Positions 3,949 through 12,224 of a stretch of DNA of 34,108 nucleotides are shown here, one piece after another. Under the pieces are notes generated by a model, which had not been told where the DNA came from, ran no database searches, and worked only from the letters and a program-made list of their open reading frames with translations. The position numbers were made by a program, and so were the translations under genes. This stretch comes from a virus. Its lineage: Duplodnaviria; Heunggongvirae; Uroviricota; Caudoviricetes. The stretch lies in the IMG/VR virus record IMGVR_UViG_2778261452_000005; one strand, written 5' to 3'. The number at the start of each line of letters is the position of its first letter. Within the stretch, counting starts at the first letter, position 1.

Positions 3949-4802
3949 GCACCATCCTGAAATGGGCGGGAAATAAAACCGCCATTATGCCAGAACTGAA
4001 AAAATACCTTCCTGCTGGCCCGCGACTGGTTGAACCTTTCGCGGGTTCCTGTGCTGTGATGATGGAAACGGATTATCCCAGCTATCTGGTTGCGGATATT
4101 AATCCTGATTTAATCAACCTCTATAAAAAGGTTGCCGCTGATTGTGAATCGTTTATATCTCGCGCCAGAGTTTTATTTGAGATCGCAAACAGGGAGGTGG
4201 CTTATTACAACATAAGGCAGGAGTTTAACTGCTCAACTGAAATTACTGATTTCATGAAAGCGGTATATTTCCTGTATCTCAATCGTCACGGTTACCGTGG
4301 TTTATGTCGCTATAACAAGAGCGGGCATTTCAACATTCCCTACGGTAATTATAAAAATCCGTATTTCCCTGAAAAAGAACTTCGCACATTTGCAGAAAAA
4401 GCCCAGCGAGCAACGTTTATCTGCGCCAGCTTTGATGAAACGCTGACGATGTTGAAGGCGGGAGATGTGGTGTATTGCGATCCGCCATATGACGGTACGT
4501 TTTCCGGTTATCACACTGATGGTTTCACTGAAGATGACCAGTATCACCTGGCATCCGTTCTTGAACATCGGTCATCAGAAGGACATCCGGTCATTGTTTC
4601 TAACAGTGACACATCCCTGATCCGTTCGCTGTATCGCAATTTTACTCACCACTATATCAAGGTAAAACGCAGCATCGGTGTGGCAGCTGGCGAGGGTAAA
4701 TCAGCAACAGAAATCATTGCTGTTTCCGGGCCGCGCTGCTGGATGGGATTTGATTATTCGCGTGGCGTGGATAGTTCTGCCGTGTACGGAGTACGTGCAT
4801 GA
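3945..4802 (+). CDS. dam: Orphan DNA N6-adenine methyltransferase (Dam-like)
   Basis: ATG 3945; EPFAGS (motif I) and CDPPY (motif IV); ATGA overlaps on both sides, with the zinc-finger gene and with A. Confidence 0.85.
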
Positions 4803-7213
4803 GTCATGCCGATATGAACAACTGCTGCGGCTTTAACGAGGCTGCCGCAGCATTCTCATGGAACAGCACGAAAAAGGCCATTAACCCTTATCTGGACCCG
4901 GCGGAAGTTGCGCCGGTTTCTACGCTTTCAAACCTGATCACTCTGTACGCTGCCGATAACGAGCAGGAACAGTTGCGCCGCGAGGCACTGAGTGATCAGG
5001 TCTGGGAGCGTTATTTCTTTAATGAATCACGTGATCCTGTCCAGCGCGAAATGGAGCAGGATAAGCTCATTAGCCGGGCAAAGCTGGCGCATGAGCAGCA
5101 GCGTTTTAATTCAGACATGGTCATTCTGGCGGACGTCAACGCCCAGCCTTCCCATATCAGCAAGCCGCTGATGCAACGTATTGAATACTTCAGCAGCCTG
5201 GGCAGGCCAAAGGCTTATTCCCGCTATTTACGTGAGACGATTAAGCCATGTCTGGAACGACTGGAGCATGTACGCGACAGTCAGCTATCTGCATCTTTTC
5301 GCTTTATGGCAAGCCATGAAGGGCTGGACGGCCTGCTGATCCTGCCTGAAATGAGTCAGGATCAGGTGAAACGCCTGTCCACCCTGGTAGCTGCGCATAT
5401 GAGTATGTGCCTTGATGCAGCTTGTGGTGATTTGTATGCCACCGATGACGTTAAGCCAGAAGAAATCCGCAAGACATGGGAAAAGGTGGCAGCGGAAACC
5501 CTGCGTCTGGATGTCATCCCACCTGCGTTTGAGCAACTCCGTCGGAAAAGAAACCGCCGTAAACCCGTGCCCTATGAACTCATTCCGGGTTCGCTGGCGC
5601 GTATGTTGTGCGCCGACTGGTGGTATCGGAAATTATGGAAGATGCGTTGCGAATGGCGGGAAGAGCAGTTGCGCGCTGTTTGCCTGGTCAGCAAAAAAGC
5701 ATCTCCTTATGTCAGCTATGAAGCCGTGATGCATAGACGTGAGCAGCGCCGTAAGTCGCTGGAGTTTTTCCGTTCTCATGAACTGGTGAACGAAGACGGC
5801 GACACGCTGGACATGGAGGATGTGGTAAACGCCAGCAGCAGCAACCCTGCGCATCGCCGCAATGAGATGATGGCCTGTGTTAAAGGTCTGGAGCTTATCG
5901 CGGAAATGCGCGGTGACTGCGCCGTTTTCTACACTATCACCTGTCCGTCGCGTTTCCATTCCACGCTAAATAACGGCAGACCAAACCCGACCTGGACAAA
6001 CGCGACGGTAAGACAAAGCAGCGATTATCTGGTCGGCATGTTTGCTGCATTTCGTAAGGCGATGCACAAAGCCGGGTTGCGCTGGTATGGCGTGCGGGTG
6101 GCTGAGCCGCATCATGATGGCACAGTTCACTGGCACCTGTTGTGTTTCATGCGCAAAAAAGACCGCCGTGCCATCACTGCATTACTGCGTAAGTTTGCCA
6201 TCCGTGAAGACCGCGAGGAGCTGGGCAATAACACTGGGCCGCGCTTTAAGTCTGAGTTGATTAACCCGCGCAAAGGAACGCCGACAAGCTACATCGCGAA
6301 ATATATCAGTAAGAACATTGACGGTCGTGGTCTGGCTGGCGAGATCAGCAAGGAAACGGGTAAATCTCTGCGTGATAACGCTGAATACGTGAATGCCTGG
6401 GCGTCTCTGCATCGTGTTCAGCAATTCCGCTTCTTTGGTATTCCGGGGCGTCAGGCTTACCGTGAACTTCGCTTGCTGGCTGGTCAGGCGGCAAGGCAAC
6501 AGGGTGACAAAAAAGCAGGTGCGCCGGTACTGGATAACCCGCGTCTTGATGCCATTCTGGCTGCTGCTGATGCTGGTTGTTTTGCCACCTACATCATGAA
6601 GCAGGGCGGCGTACTGGTTCCCCGTAAATATCACCTCATCAGAACCGCTTATGAAATCAACGAAGAGCCGACCGCCTATGGCGATCACGGCATTCGTATT
6701 TATGGCATCTGGTCACCCATTGCAGAGGGCAAGATCTGCACTCATGCAGTGAAGTGGAAAATGGTTCGTAAAGCCGTTGACGTTCAGGAGGCGGCAGCCG
6801 ACCAGGGCGCTTGCGCCCCTTGGACTCGTGGCAATAACTGTCCCCTTGCTGAAAATTTGAACCAACAGGAGAAAGATAAATCAGCTGATGGGGACACCAG
6901 AACGGATATTACCCGCATGGATGACAAGGAGTTGCACGATTTTCTGCACAGTATGAACAAAAAAGAGCGCCGGGAACTGGCTGCAAGGTTACGCCTGGTG
7001 AAACCGAAACGGCGTAGAAACTACAAACAGCGAATTACAGACCATCAACGACAGCAGCTCGTCTATGAACTGAAGTCCAGAGGATTTGATGGCAGCGAGA
7101 AAGAGGTAGATTTACTCCTTCGCGGTGGCAGTATTCCGTCAGGAGCAGGCCTGCGTATCTTCTATCGGAACCAGCGTCTGAAGGAAGATGATAAGTGGCG
7201 GAACCTGTATTAA
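4799..7213 (+). CDS. A: Replication initiation endonuclease gpA (rolling-circle, HUH family)
   Basis: 804 aa; HUH-type motif VHWHLL and paired tyrosines YIAKYISK; position after the early operon as in P2/186. Confidence 0.9.
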
Positions 7214-7365: not shown

Positions 7366-7554
7366 ATGCAGGACTATTTTTTGGAGTCTTTGAAGCTCCA
7401 GCGCATTGATTTTTTTCTTAAGCTTGTAGCGGCTAGTGAGTGTAGTGATGAAGAGAAGGGGCTGGCCCTGCAGTGGGTTTCTGAACTGACAGATGAACTC
7501 ATGGCAAAAATCAGAACCCACGAATACAACCGCTCAATGGATGTCATCAGCTGA
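7366..7554 (+). CDS. Small SOS-operon protein (62 aa), possible Tum-like antirepressor N-terminal part
   Basis: AGGAGG SD; immediately downstream of the LexA box; same position as 186 tum. Confidence 0.55.
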   Translation: MQDYFLESLKLQRIDFFLKLVAASECSDEEKGLALQWVSELTDELMAKIRTHEYNRSMDVIS

Positions 7555-7798: not shown

Positions 7799-7957
7799 GA
7801 AACGTTGCTGGCGTCTGAAATTGCTTCTGGCGTCAGCAAGGTTGAACAACGAGTACAGTGAGGCGTTAGGTGTGGCGTTTATTTGATGAGTGAACGCCCG
7901 TTCTGCGACAGGTTTGGAGATTAAGGTTGAAACTACGGGCAAAATACCATCTTTTTC

Positions 7958-8383
7958 CTACTTAATTGAGTCCAGTAACAAGTTACAGTTACTCTCATTG
8001 TAGAGAGAACGAGCAATTAGTGTTACCTGCTTTCCATTCATTCCCGGCTTATCCCATAACACAGCTTCTTGCGACGCCACAAATTCAGCATAATCAATTA
8101 TGCGTTGTTCGTGATCTGGTTCCTCATAGCCAAAGTATGAGAGCGCATCGTTGTAAGCGTGGTAAGCTGCTTTCTGTAATATCTTGATATCGGCTGTAGG
8201 TACTTGCTCCGTGTAGCTAGGATCTAATTGTGTGCTACTGCCATAGAATGCACATGAAAGGTAAGATATTGATTTCTGTTGAGCTTTAGTTCCTTTCTCA
8301 TAGTTTTTAGCTGTTACCGCCTGAACTGGGACGCTAACAAAGCTTGCAACCAGAATTAAAATTAATACGTAAAAGCTTTTCAT
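7958..8383 (-). CDS. Hypothetical secreted (signal-peptide) protein, 141 aa; cargo gene
   Basis: GAGGT SD; N-terminal MKSFYVLILILVASFVSVPVQA looks like a cleavable signal peptide; AT-rich; sits at the P2 tin/old-equivalent position. Confidence 0.6.
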   Translation of the reverse strand: MKSFYVLILILVASFVSVPVQAVTAKNYEKGTKAQQKSISYLSCAFYGSSTQLDPSYTEQVPTADIKILQKAAYHAYNDALSYFGYEEPDHEQRIIDYAEFVASQEAVLWDKPGMNGKQVTLIARSLYNESNCNLLLDSIK

Positions 8384-8569
8384 TTTGACCTCAGCCGAAA
8401 CGTTAGAGAGACTATCGAAGTTTGTAAAACCCGTGGCGATTCAGTTTGAGATCCTCCCCCTTACATGATTTTTAATCAAATATATGCTTTTGTAAGCATA
8501 CCTGTTAACCGAATTATTCATTTTTAGAGATCTTCCGACATACTGATTATGCCCGCTGAGGAGTTCACC

Positions 8570-8686
8570 TTGCGTAAAGTCCGATTCGCTTTACTCGTCT
8601 GTGCATGTCTATGCTGCATGAGATTGCATGATCGTTTGAGGATCGTTTTTGCTAAGGCCCGCCAGAACTGGCGGGCTTTTGCGTAG
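8570..8686 (+). CDS. Candidate small ORF (38 aa, TTG start), basic N-terminus and Cys-rich hydrophobic core
   Basis: GAGGAG SD 6 nt upstream of TTG 8570; translation MRKVRFALLVCACLCCMRLHDRLRIVFAKARQNWRAFA; terminator-like hairpin overlaps its 3' end. Too short for the ORF track. Confidence 0.25.
   Translation: MRKVRFALLVCACLCCMRLHDRLRIVFAKARQNWRAFA
8657..8680 (+). terminator. Intrinsic-terminator-like hairpin (GCCCGCCAG..CTGGCGGGC + TTTT)
   Basis: GC-rich inverted repeat 8657-8676 followed by TTTT at 8677-8680. Confidence 0.45.
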
Positions 8687-8725
8687 ATTATGCACCTGCA
8701 TGAAAACCACTACATAAAGCGGGCA

Positions 8726-8744
8726 GGCGTGGCGGGGATACGAG
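8726..8744. other. Candidate cos (cohesive-end) site
   Basis: GGCGTGGCGGGGATACGAG resembles the 19-nt P2/186 cohesive ends as I recall them (GGCG[A/T]GGCGGGGAAAGCA-); located in the gpA-to-Q intergenic region where cos maps in P2-like prophages. Confidence 0.45.
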
Positions 8745-8833
8745 CGCGCGCTGATGGGGGACGCAGTGCTTTTGGCATAGTTATGAGGTAGAATTTCAAA
8801 ATACTTTTTAGCGCTGTTGGAGGTATAGACAAA

Positions 8834-9379
8834 ATGGACGTTATAACTGGAGTTGCAGAGTTTTTTCGAAAAGTACCTGCAGCATTTCTTGTGGCTATTA
8901 CATGTGTTTTAGGTCTTATACTTTTTCTGCCAGACTCTTTGGCAGTAAAAGTGGCTGTTGATGGCTTTCGTAATGAGTATAGGATTTTTATTGGACCTGC
9001 ATTTTTACTGTCTGTATCTTATTTAGTTGCAAGAGTCTATCTCTCTTTCTATGACTTACTTGGTGAAAGGCAGGCTAAGAAGGTACGCACTTCCTACCTT
9101 GAGAAGCTAACAGCAGAAGAAAAAGGATATTTAAAGTCTTATATTACCGAAGGTGTTAATTCACTTATGTGTGGGCCTGAGGATGGGGTCATGGGGGGAC
9201 TTGTGGCTAAGGGGATTACTTATAGAGCCACCAGTGTTGGGGATATGATCTACGGTTTTGCTTTCAACTTACAGCCATGGGCGCGTGAACATTTAGAGAA
9301 AAATAGTCATTTATTAGATGGGGCTATTGGGCGTGCAATGACTCCAAGAGAAAAATTAAACTTTAGATTGGGACGCTAA
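8834..9379 (+). CDS. Hypothetical inner-membrane protein (181 aa, two N-terminal TM helices); possible superinfection-exclusion/abortive-infection candidate
   Basis: GGAGGT SD; two hydrophobic helices (about aa 14-35 and 51-71) and a soluble C-terminal domain; lies between the cos-like site and the portal gene, where P2 has no gene. Confidence 0.6.
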   Translation: MDVITGVAEFFRKVPAAFLVAITCVLGLILFLPDSLAVKVAVDGFRNEYRIFIGPAFLLSVSYLVARVYLSFYDLLGERQAKKVRTSYLEKLTAEEKGYLKSYITEGVNSLMCGPEDGVMGGLVAKGITYRATSVGDMIYGFAFNLQPWAREHLEKNSHLLDGAIGRAMTPREKLNFRLGR

Positions 9380-9408
9380 CCAGTCACACATTACCAATGT
9401 GTGACTGG
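9380..9408. terminator. Perfect 11-bp inverted repeat between convergent genes (likely terminator)
   Basis: CCAGTCACACA-ttaccaa-TGTGTGACTGG directly after stop 9377-9379, followed by a T-rich tract. Confidence 0.5.
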
Positions 9409-9423
9409 TGGTGGTTATTTCTT

Positions 9424-10458
9424 TTATTCAATGTCAAATTTATATGGTTCAAAAGAAATAACCTTTTCCCCCAACCACTCATTTAGTTCTTCGAGTCTTT
9501 TTTGTAGCGGTATTAACTCATTACGGACAAAGACGCGGCTGGCTTTTTCCACATCACCAAAGCCGCCGGTATTGTTAGGAATAATGCCCATCATCTGCGG
9601 CGGTACGCGGTGTGCTGCCATCATGTCATCGCGGCTCACGTTCTTAATGTTCAGAAATTCATCCTTTGCTGCAACCTCAGACAGTGGGATGATCTGGATG
9701 CCGTCTTTTTTACCGTTGGGCGAATACATAAACAGGTTGCGGAAGTTGCCCGGACCTTTGGCGCTTTTCATCGCGTTGCGGAGGTTGTTCACATCCTCCT
9801 GGTTCTGCGCGGCGTCAGTCATATACATGATGAAGCCTGCATGGCTGCCGTTGATGTAATACTTACGGCGGAACAGCGTGGCGGACTCGTTGAGCAGGGC
9901 TGACGGAATGGCAGAAAGATAACCGGGCAGGCCGTAGATCTCCTGATTAATATCCGGTTCCATCAGATGAAAAATGCTGCCTTTCGTGAACTGATACGGC
10001 TGGGTTGTCATACCGTATTGCACAAACCAGTAGGTATCCAGGTCTAATCCGCGTCGGGTGTATTTTGCCAGCGCAGGTTCAAGGGCGATCACTTCACCGA
10101 AGCGGTTCGTGCGTTTCTCCAGATAGGCATTGCCAAATACCAGATAGTCCTGCACAAAACGCGAAAAAGCCTGCTGGCTGAGCAGCGGGTGAGGGATGTA
10201 GGTACTGGTCAGAATGTTGCACTTTACTGCAATCGGGGAACTGTGATGCACTGCAGCGCGGAAGGTGCGCGCCAGTCCGTCAAAGCTGACGGGCGGCTCA
10301 TACCAACGGTCCATCTGTACGCATTCCACATAGTCCAGTAATTCTCGGCGGTCCAGAACAGGAACGGGATCGCCGAAGCTGAATGCTTCGGCTGTAGTTT
10401 GACTTTTAAGCTGGATCTGTTTCGTCGCCGCAGCGCGGTTCTTCTTACTCTTTCCCAT
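9424..10458 (-). CDS. Q: Portal protein (P2 gpQ-like)
   Basis: 344 aa from ATG 10456-10458 (track ORF starts at TTG 10461); length and position match P2 Q; overlaps the P stop. Confidence 0.85.
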   Translation of the reverse strand: MGKSKKNRAAATKQIQLKSQTTAEAFSFGDPVPVLDRRELLDYVECVQMDRWYEPPVSFDGLARTFRAAVHHSSPIAVKCNILTSTYIPHPLLSQQAFSRFVQDYLVFGNAYLEKRTNRFGEVIALEPALAKYTRRGLDLDTYWFVQYGMTTQPYQFTKGSIFHLMEPDINQEIYGLPGYLSAIPSALLNESATLFRRKYYINGSHAGFIMYMTDAAQNQEDVNNLRNAMKSAKGPGNFRNLFMYSPNGKKDGIQIIPLSEVAAKDEFLNIKNVSRDDMMAAHRVPPQMMGIIPNNTGGFGDVEKASRVFVRNELIPLQKRLEELNEWLGEKVISFEPYKFDIE

Positions 10459-12224
10459 CAAAAAATCTCCACAATATTGCTGGTATTGGCGGATTCGCCC
10501 TGCAGCGGTTCGTTAAACAGTGCGTGCATCGTTGCCCAGGCCAGATCGGCATGGCTGGCTTCTTCGCTGCGGCTGGCTTCATAGGTCGGGCGGTTGCCAC
10601 TGGCGGTGGTGGCGCGACGGATTGCCATGAATGACTGCGCAATGTCGGTGTGCCCGGCGTCAAACTCCAGACGGCGGTGGCTGATAATGTCGTAGGCCTT
10701 GAGTACCAGGGCGTTTTTAACGTTGGGGTTGTAGACAAACTCCCGGACGGCAGGAAAGAACGCTTTCACGTTCTCATAAACCCCGTGACCAACGCCGGTT
10801 GAGTCGATGCCGATATAGGTCACGTTGTACTGTTCGGTCAGTTTTTTGATGGCGTCAGCCTGGGCGCGAAAGTCCATCCCGCGCCACTGGTGACGCTCAA
10901 GAATGCGGAACTTGCCGCCCGGCACGGCTGGCGGTGCCACCACCACGCATCCGGCACTGTCGCCGTTCTGCGTACCTTTCGCCGGGTCATAACCGATCCA
11001 CACTTCGCGCCAGCCAAATGGGCGCAGTGCCAGTGCATGAAAGTCGGTCCAGACTTCCCAGCTGTCCACCATGCACGCCTGCAGCTCGCTGAGTGGGAAC
11101 ACAGACGCGAGATCGTCCACAAACTCGCACATCAGCAGGTTCTGGTATTCGTCCGGGCTGTACTCCATGCGTAACTGATCGAGGTCGAACAGGTTACATC
11201 CGCCGCGCACTGCATCTTCCACGGTGACAATCTGGCGGTATTGCCCATCTGCGCACAGCAGGCCGGGGGCCAGATTGCTGTGGGACAGGTCGATGTCCAC
11301 CTTATCTGCTTTGTTGCGCCCACGGTTGAATAGCGCACCGGACCAGAACGGATAAGCACTGTGTGTCAGGCTGGATGGCGTGGAAAAATAGGTTTGTCGC
11401 CATTTCTTGTGAATAGCCATACCGGAAGCCACTTTGCGCAGCTCCTGGAATTTCGGTATCCAGAAATATTCATCCAGATACAGGTTGCCGTGATAACTCT
11501 GGGCCGTGCGGGCATTGGTGCCGAGGAAGTAAAGCGTGGCCCCGTTAGGAAGCACCATCGGATCGCCTTTCAACTCCACCTCCACTTCTTTGGCGAAGTC
11601 GATGATGTACTGCTTAAAGACGTGGGCCTGTGCCTTGCTGGCGGAAAGGAAAATCTGGTTACGTCCGGTCAGCAGGGCGTCAATCAGGGCTTCACGGGCA
11701 AAGTAAAAGGTCGCGCCGATCTGGCGTGACTTCAGCAGGTTGCGGATGCGGTTGGTTTTTCCGGCTTCCCACCAGTGGCGCTGGTAGTTGAACATGGAGG
11801 AATGGAAGATTTCTTCCAGCTTCTCAATCTGCTCATCGGTGAAAACATTCTTTTCCGGCTGACGGCGTGGGCCTTTGTTGCGGTTGGCGACGTTAGGGTT
11901 TAAGTCGGATTCGTTGCCGCCATTGTTAAACTTGCCGATCCGCGCGTGGCGCTCAGACTGGCGCGCCAGCAGGTCAATCTCTTTGAAATCTTTCCCTTCT
12001 TTGTGCTCCTTCATAATGAGCTGGCAGTAGCGTGCGGCGGTGGTGAGCTGCATCTGATCCAGCGGCCCATAGTCACCCCACTTGTCGCGTTTTTTCCAGC
12101 TGTGAACGGTTGCAACTTTCTCGCCCAGCATTTCAGCAATGCGGGCTACGCGGTATCCCTGAAAGTACAGCAGCATGGCCTGCCGACGGGGATCGAGATC
12201 TGCGGGTGTCAGTGTGGTGTTCAT
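10458..12224 (-). CDS. P: Terminase large (ATPase) subunit (P2 gpP-like)
   Basis: 588 aa; divergent from O; size and position as P2 P. Confidence 0.85.
   Translation of the reverse strand: MNTTLTPADLDPRRQAMLLYFQGYRVARIAEMLGEKVATVHSWKKRDKWGDYGPLDQMQLTTAARYCQLIMKEHKEGKDFKEIDLLARQSERHARIGKFNNGGNESDLNPNVANRNKGPRRQPEKNVFTDEQIEKLEEIFHSSMFNYQRHWWEAGKTNRIRNLLKSRQIGATFYFAREALIDALLTGRNQIFLSASKAQAHVFKQYIIDFAKEVEVELKGDPMVLPNGATLYFLGTNARTAQSYHGNLYLDEYFWIPKFQELRKVASGMAIHKKWRQTYFSTPSSLTHSAYPFWSGALFNRGRNKADKVDIDLSHSNLAPGLLCADGQYRQIVTVEDAVRGGCNLFDLDQLRMEYSPDEYQNLLMCEFVDDLASVFPLSELQACMVDSWEVWTDFHALALRPFGWREVWIGYDPAKGTQNGDSAGCVVVAPPAVPGGKFRILERHQWRGMDFRAQADAIKKLTEQYNVTYIGIDSTGVGHGVYENVKAFFPAVREFVYNPNVKNALVLKAYDIISHRRLEFDAGHTDIAQSFMAIRRATTASGNRPTYEASRSEEASHADLAWATMHALFNEPLQGESANTSNIVEIF

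Follow-up and report, generated by a model that had tools for sequence, protein, structure and literature searches.

The 38-codon open reading frame (ORF) at 8570-8686 is, with high confidence, an accident without function that arose where two unrelated DNA segments adjoin, a stub of an IS3-family element and the cos block of a P2-family phage. The stub (8491-8590) supplies an orphaned GAGGAG, a start codon mutated from ATG to TTG and seven codons of OrfA, and the cos block (8602-8751) is conserved for signals that act at the level of DNA, not for any reading frame. The ORF lies in a window (the whole stretch of 34,108 nucleotides that was analysed) that is a Fels-2-like (Peduoviridae) prophage of E. 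coli. The window is 100% identical to one E. coli chromosome, whose PGAP annotation gives the following surroundings:

4799-7213, plus strand: replication endonuclease (gpA-like)
7366-7554, plus strand: hypothetical protein of 62 aa
7565-7798, plus strand: DinI-like protein
7958-8383, minus strand: hypothetical protein of 141 aa
8384-8833: no annotated feature
8834-9379, plus strand: SieB-family protein
9424-10461, minus strand: portal
10458-12224, minus strand: terminase

The assignment at 8834-9379, a member of a superinfection-exclusion family, is backed by a match to Pfam SieB (4.5e-25). The 141-aa protein has a signal-like N-terminal sequence, is nearly unchanged in 30 viral contigs and found no match in Pfam. 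Cargo varies on both sides of cos among relatives, with AIPR, SEFIR, TIR, KAP NTPase, HsdR, DinI and SieB genes represented. A hotspot for cargo and defence genes next to cos has been described for P2-like phages and P4 satellites (PMC9122126). The cargo pattern fits that description, and the interval from the replication gene to the portal gene is this known cos-flanking hotspot. Around the ORF the interval contains the following features, with negative positions counted from the cos nick:

8491-8590, plus strand: truncated left end of an IS3-family element, with TGTAAG terminus, leader of about 80 bp, orfA ribosome-binding site and about seven orfA codons
8558-8563, plus strand: GAGGAG Shine-Dalgarno motif, the relic orfA ribosome-binding site, invariant in comparison with two IS3-family elements
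8570-8686, plus strand: the 38-codon ORF, a chimera of seven codons from the IS, a brief junction and, as far as the first stop, the cos block in one arbitrary frame
8602-8751: conserved cos block of about 150 bp, of the Fels-2/P2/186 type of Peduoviridae, with unrelated cargo DNA on both flanks
8602-8607, 8615-8620 and 8625-8630: three TGCATG repeats, conserved islands and candidate terminase recognition repeats
8630-8644: GATC-N7-GATC inverted repeat with two Dam sites, at -96 to -82, in the Fels-2-like clade only
8657-8680, plus strand: GC hairpin GCCCGCCAG-AA-CTGGCGGGC followed by TTTT, the cos inverted repeat GCCAG..CTGGCGCGG as it occurs in the Fels-2 clade
8688-8725: nick-proximal right-arm box TTATGCAccTGCATGAAAACCACTACATAAAGCGGGCA, invariant or nearly so, matching P2, P4 and 186
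8726-8744: 19-nt cohesive end GGCGTGGCGGGGATACGAG, homologous to the annotated cosR of P2, GGCGAGGCGGGGAAAGCAC

The features that had led the first-pass annotation to propose a small gene are all present. GAGGAG lies 6 nt (ttcacc) before TTG 8570, the frame runs from that codon through to TAG at 8684-8686 (translation LRKVRFALLVCACLCCMRLHDRLRIVFAKARQNWRAFA), and a GC stem-loop (8657-8676) with TTTT (8677-8680) overlaps the end of the frame. PGAP places no gene at 8570 in the identical E. coli chromosome. In the ORF listing the same frame is a 45-aa ORF when begun at ATG 8549. The length of 38 codons is unremarkable, being expected by chance: among simulated 450-bp sequences with the same dinucleotide transitions, 91% hold an ORF of at least 38 codons and 79% one of at least 45 codons. 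Six further ORFs of 25-40 aa occur in the same intergenic region. The Shine-Dalgarno motif and a 38-codon open frame occur together in 8.7% of the simulations, a mildly unusual combination that is explained by homology to the start of an IS3-family orfA.

This homology emerged from a sensitive search with 8384-8620 as query. By blastn against E. coli chromosomes and plasmids, 8490-8590 is 74-82% identical to sequence at the 5' ends of genes annotated as IS3-family transposases; in two of the annotated loci this similarity starts about 80 bp before the transposase CDS, and the start of the CDS aligns exactly with TTG 8570. In a three-way alignment homology sets in at TGTAAG (8491) and ceases near 8590, with all three flanks unrelated. 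A shared start at this hexamer beside flanks that have nothing in common marks it as the IS terminus. The distance from GAGGAG to the start is the same as that to the ATG of both IS3-family elements, and the codons ATG CGT AAA GCC CGA TTC (MRKARF) align with TTG CGT AAA GTC CGA TTC (LRKVRF). The intact OrfA of the reference element belongs to Pfam HTH_Tnp_1 (1.7e-27).

Because homology stops near 8590, the segment is a stub and not an element. Neither an intact transposase (orfA/orfB with programmed frameshift) nor a right inverted repeat was found, and no clean match to the right inverted repeat of the reference IS was located. In comparison with known IS3-family left ends (e.g., that of the element encoding WP_112921735.1), about 100 bp agree at 74-82% identity from the terminal TGTAAG onward, with an identical GAGGAG, the same start position and first residues (M/L)RK(A/V)RF; the differences are that only these 100 bp or so are left, that ATG has become TTG, and that nothing beyond codon 7 and no transposase remains. 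The ribosome-binding site is therefore genuine yet orphaned, since it belongs to a destroyed transposase gene. The same origin accounts for the basic N-terminus to which attention had been drawn: it is present, but its RKVR is a relic of the MRKARF of IS3-family OrfA.

The remainder of the ORF has a different source. A P2-family cos segment of about 125 bp is said to be enough for packaging. In searches of phage genomes and E. coli genomes with 8384-8833 as query, the matches, which come from 89 phage records and 1278 out of 5426 E. coli genomes, are confined to 8601-8753 (query positions 218-370), and the entire query is found only in 101 near-identical genomes. An alignment of nine relatives places the boundaries of homology at TGCATG (8602) and just after GAGCGCGCGC (about 8751), with unrelated DNA outside. 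The record of Salmonella phage SEN8 terminates exactly at the base aligned to 8725, and the records of P2, 186 and P4 end at the homologous position, which puts the nick at 8725|8726. The cohesive-end homology, the genome end of a relative and the location between gpA-side cargo and the portal gene all agree, and by these comparisons 8602-8751 is a P2-family cos site; the cohesive-end motif also recurs in the 91 cos regions described below. The cos of P2-family phages and their satellite P4 is treated by Ziermann and Calendar (1990), as cited in PMC9122126, PMC9594776 and PMC5694545, and papers citing that work refer to a cos core of 55 bp. The last 28 codons of the ORF fall within the cos right arm, whereas the Shine-Dalgarno motif, the start and the first 10-11 codons lie outside the block. 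An alternative raised in the first-pass annotation, that the whole element is part of the cos packaging region, accordingly holds for 8602-8686 (the 3' two-thirds of the ORF, with the hairpin) and does not extend to the IS-derived start.

The motifs of the right arm were mapped on 91 distinct cos regions, one genome per species, collected with a degenerate nick-proximal pattern whose hits were followed by GGCG; they span many Enterobacterales species and a few other lineages. With the 91 loci anchored ungapped at the nick, the information-content profile contains islands at -124, -111 and -101 (TGCATG), at -66 to -51 (GCCAG..CTGGCGCGG), at -38 to -19 (TCATGCAnnTGCATNAAAA) and at the cohesive end; the TGCATG and inverted-repeat islands were absent from the search pattern, and conservation from -27 onward was imposed by it. 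The TGCA-TGCATGAAAA box is likewise a DNA motif at a fixed distance from the nick, as are the inverted repeat and the three copies of TGCATG. The second of these copies contains the ATG that serves as an in-frame Met codon of the ORF, at 8618. Phage 186 and satellite P4 carry all of the motifs; canonical P2 has the repeats and no clear inverted repeat, so that the latter is not universally required. P4 is reported to have only the cos region in common with P2 (PMC9122126), and its possession of every motif is the strongest argument that they are packaging signals. From their conservation, a putative role in binding terminase is proposed for the TGCATG repeats and the inverted repeat. Literature searches turned up no account of repeats bound by terminase in the cos of P2-like phages.

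Terminase would recognize the right arm through the three TGCATG repeats, spaced roughly one helical turn apart, with the TGCA-TGCATGAAAA box and the inverted repeat GCCAG..CTGGCGCGG as further points of recognition; it would then nick at 8725|8726 and so generate the 19-nt cohesive end. The arrangement resembles that of P2 and P4 cos in the 19-nt cohesive end beginning GGCG(A/T)GGCGGGGA.., in its place between gpA-side cargo and the portal gene, in a conserved core common with P4, in the TGCAT repeats of the right arm and in the hypervariable defence cargo adjoining it. It differs in that the cohesive end of the Fels-2-clade block contains ATACGAG where P2 has AAAGCAC, and in the presence of the GATC-N7-GATC repeat. 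The clade also has a full 9-bp GC hairpin with a T-run, whereas P2 has no clear inverted repeat and 186 and P4 have weaker ones. The cosB of lambda, with its R sites and IHF site, offers a further parallel, namely short repeats on one side of the nick, spacing by helical turns and a nick-proximal core; there is no sequence relation, and the analogy is one of mechanism only.

A rival explanation takes the 38 codons for a genuine small protein gene peculiar to this lineage, whether for a membrane peptide or a toxin or as a de novo micro-gene, with the IS relic as its ribosome-binding site and the cos hairpin as its terminator; frame and start would then be expected to be conserved in homologous regions, with excess variation at third codon positions. 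The case for such a gene consists of the ideal 6-nt spacing, the low simulated frequency of motif and frame together, the terminator-like hairpin closing the ORF, and an ORF intact in 28 of 29 viral contigs with the same cassette. Of the 30 viral contigs with the 141-aa cargo gene, 28 are 98-100% identical across the ORF region, and at such divergence a mostly intact ORF is uninformative. The near-identical copies have a mixture of synonymous and non-synonymous changes (A12E, C15Y, R31P and stop-to-Leu among the latter), and the sole diverged copy, at about 89% identity and with the same cargo, has a 1-nt deletion at 8585 that shifts the frame at codon 6 and truncates it after 16 codons.

The cos-derived 28 codons, which lie in DNA whose conservation has other causes, tell against a gene as well. 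The frame is stop-free over the block (-124 to -40) in 38 of 83 loci, with ORF ends spread from -93 to past +1400, counted from the nick, and the other two forward frames are open in 11 and 26 of the 83. The more frequent openness of frame 0 is explained by the TGCATGA repeats, which give it an ATG and put a TGA into frame 1. Just one start recurs, at -108, and it is simply the ATG within the second copy of TGCATG. In a set of 17 close relatives, at least 72% identical across the block, codon 13 has changed from TGT to TGA in 8, about half, and the TAG stop is present in only 5; variable columns at codon positions 1, 2 and 3 number 17, 14 and 15, with no third-position excess. Conservation of the frame in homologous regions, the check that the first-pass annotation had itself put forward, thus fails. 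The exact 45-aa and 38-aa peptides are missing from 15 billion predicted proteins, the peptide has no match in Pfam, and no plus-strand promoter-like site was found at 8384-8570. A real gene was rejected as an explanation, being most unlikely given a start and ribosome-binding site inherited from transposase orfA, an unconserved frame and the lack of codon-position bias.

The particular kinds of peptide that had been suggested fare no better. The uncharged stretch FALLVCACLCCM has only 12 residues, against the 18-20 or so needed to span a membrane, which argues against a small membrane peptide. The Cys-rich hydrophobic core is there to be read, yet it is the junction and the TGCATG repeats translated as ..VCACLCCM... 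A lipoprotein-like signal, for which the criterion was [LVI][ASTVI][GAS]C following a hydrophobic region of at least 7 residues, was not recognized: when the peptide is read directly the nearest string is VCAC, with Cys at -2 and only 5-6 hydrophobic residues ahead. The likeness to type I toxins and small membrane proteins such as Hok, Ldr, Ibs and TisB lies in a length of 38 aa and a basic N-terminus followed by a hydrophobic stretch; here the hydrophobic run is too short, the frame is not conserved and the N-terminus derives from a transposase. Neither an antisense RNA nor a family match of the type I toxin kind was found in Rfam or Pfam.

The relic ribosome-binding site may nevertheless allow low-level translation of the frame. 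A stronger version of this idea is that the orphaned IS3 start, fused to the cos block, is transcribed and translated in lysogens as a newborn 38-residue peptide. Such a proto-gene, caught in the act and owing its C-terminus and terminator to a DNA-packaging signal, is judged highly improbable; a separate possibility, a dual-function inverted repeat in the cos of the Fels-2 clade, considered below, is the likelier of the two.

A small regulatory RNA was a further suggestion, and a short transcript with its 3' end at the hairpin is a related one; in one variant the RNA would start from a plus-strand promoter-like site at 8334-8362 (9 of 12 matches) and run antisense to the 5' end of the minus-strand 141-aa gene. 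Besides that site, a stable terminator-like 3' hairpin is compatible with an RNA, and 8540-8690 folds at z = -3.2. Promoter-like sites are as frequent as in shuffled sequence, however (3 found, 2.9 expected), and none lies on the plus strand at 8384-8570. Rfam gave no match at E<1 in 8384-8833; at a permissive E-value over 7800-9400 the sole match at E<1 was a sub-threshold VrrA inside the SieB gene. The DNA upstream of 8602 is conserved only in near-identical prophages, and part of it is the IS stub, while the conserved part is common to P4 and to phages with wholly different upstream DNA. The same block beside different upstream DNA fits a DNA signal, not a transcript with a fixed 5' end, and a small RNA is considered very unlikely.

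With the ORF read as an IS stub joined to cos, its terminal hairpin becomes a question about the cos inverted repeat. The centre of the repeat lies 59.5 nt from the nick, and P4 and 186 have an inverted repeat in the same place. Folded as RNA, the segment 8640-8690 reaches -25.7 kcal/mol, with z = -4.5 in comparison with shuffled sequence. The stem has 9 bp, 8 of them G-C, and is followed by UUUU, the form of an intrinsic terminator with a short U-tract of four T; on the minus strand the T-run after the stem is missing. A perfect-stem search over the 91 loci proved too strict and was replaced by in-register pair counts and a tabulation of stems and tails. In register the inverted repeat gives 482 Watson-Crick cells, compared with 185-226 when the partner is slid by 1-3 nt, and G-C to C-G swaps occur at stem pairs (-67,-52) and (-69,-50). 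In 39 of 85 distinct sequences there are at most 4 contiguous pairs, yet the 3' arm CTGGCGCGG is kept, so that the repeat may be read, at least partly, as a sequence motif and not as a structure. The promoter and terminator scanner missed the hairpin at 8657, probably since its maximal stem leaves a 2-nt loop.

Termination of rightward transcription, on the plus strand, is a probable further function of the hairpin in the Fels-2 clade. Several relatives have a last plus-strand cargo gene whose end lies 0-50 bp ahead of the block. Phage 186, with a weak inverted repeat, has a separately annotated terminator, t95b, just upstream of the block; terminators of this kind at P2-like right ends resemble the hairpin in having a GC stem-loop and T-run on the rightward strand just before cos, and the difference is that t95b stands upstream of the cos block, whereas the predicted terminator here is inside the block and coincides with the inverted repeat. 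The in-block form (at -69 to -44) occurs in 13 of 89 loci, an upstream terminator (a hairpin of terminator form lying up to 210 nt upstream, in recurring places between -210 and -140, as t95b does in 186) in 22 and both in none (one-sided Fisher p = 0.018, uncorrected for relatedness).

Whether the hairpin has one role or two can be weighed on these data. A single role, either as a packaging element that does not terminate or as a terminator dispensable for packaging, is possible and the less probable reading. For packaging alone there is the position of the repeat, fixed with respect to the nick across the family and P4 and often without a T-run. For termination alone there is canonical P2, which packages without the inverted repeat; the in-block form is also complementary to upstream terminators, and long stems go with T-rich tails, a tabulation in which the tail counts are confounded by G-T pairs that take up part of the T-run. 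Since the evidence for each of these alternatives counters the other, a dual role is favoured, in which the repeat would serve as packaging element and as a terminator that keeps rightward transcription out of cos. The inverted repeat of the Fels-2 clade has grown into the 9-bp GC stem with T-run, and this stem would halt plus-strand transcripts of the early operon and of the cargo before they reach cos. The loop of the hairpin (8664-8669) is AGAACT in some close relatives and AGTTCT, its reverse complement, in others, a pattern which suggests that it flips between the inverted arms.

The value of these results is mainly cautionary, and nothing in them is new in kind, as the cos biology of the P2 family is already known. 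Their useful by-products are an explanation for a convincing false ORF and a motif map of the cos right arm. With about a quarter of complete E. coli genomes (1278/5426) carrying a P2-like cos block, the block is a widespread source of spurious ORF calls: the TGCATG repeats make in-frame ATGs, from which annotators call such ORFs. GenBank and RefSeq records contain ORFs that begin at the second-repeat ATG (equivalents of 8618) and read across cos, in the following collected loci (coordinates are those of each locus):

L005, 818-1027
L006, 817-966
L008, 817 onward
L167, 835-1017
L168, 835-1035

Some are called hypothetical proteins, 50-70 aa long, others PGAP pseudogenes that contain an internal stop, and others defence genes with over-extended starts; they look like annotation artefacts. 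In the KAP-type P-loop NTPase WP_023147874.1, recognizable sequence begins only past cos. Long cos-spanning ORFs in L008 and L066 were considered as genes that cross cos and were rejected, as the recognizable protein starts after cos and the extension is merely open. Knowledge of cos-derived ATGs helps to avoid false small-protein calls, and IS stubs may leave behind perfect orphan ribosome-binding sites that make chance ORFs look genuine. The map itself (three TGCATG repeats, inverted repeat and nick-proximal box, at fixed distances from the nick and common with P4) provides targets for packaging studies and cosmid design.

Two minor observations concern promoters at the edges of these elements. 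On the minus strand 8479-8508 resembles a promoter, TTAACA-18-TATATT, with 10 of 12 matches; its -35 hexamer is within the IS3-family stub and its -10 beyond the stub. The two may form a hybrid promoter that faces outward and serves the 141-aa gene at 7958-8383. In P2 (NC_001895, 625-680) the annotated old-tin mRNA starts lie on the minus strand just beyond the first TGCAT repeat, and from this position the promoter of that cargo operon must overlap the outer edge of the cos right arm.
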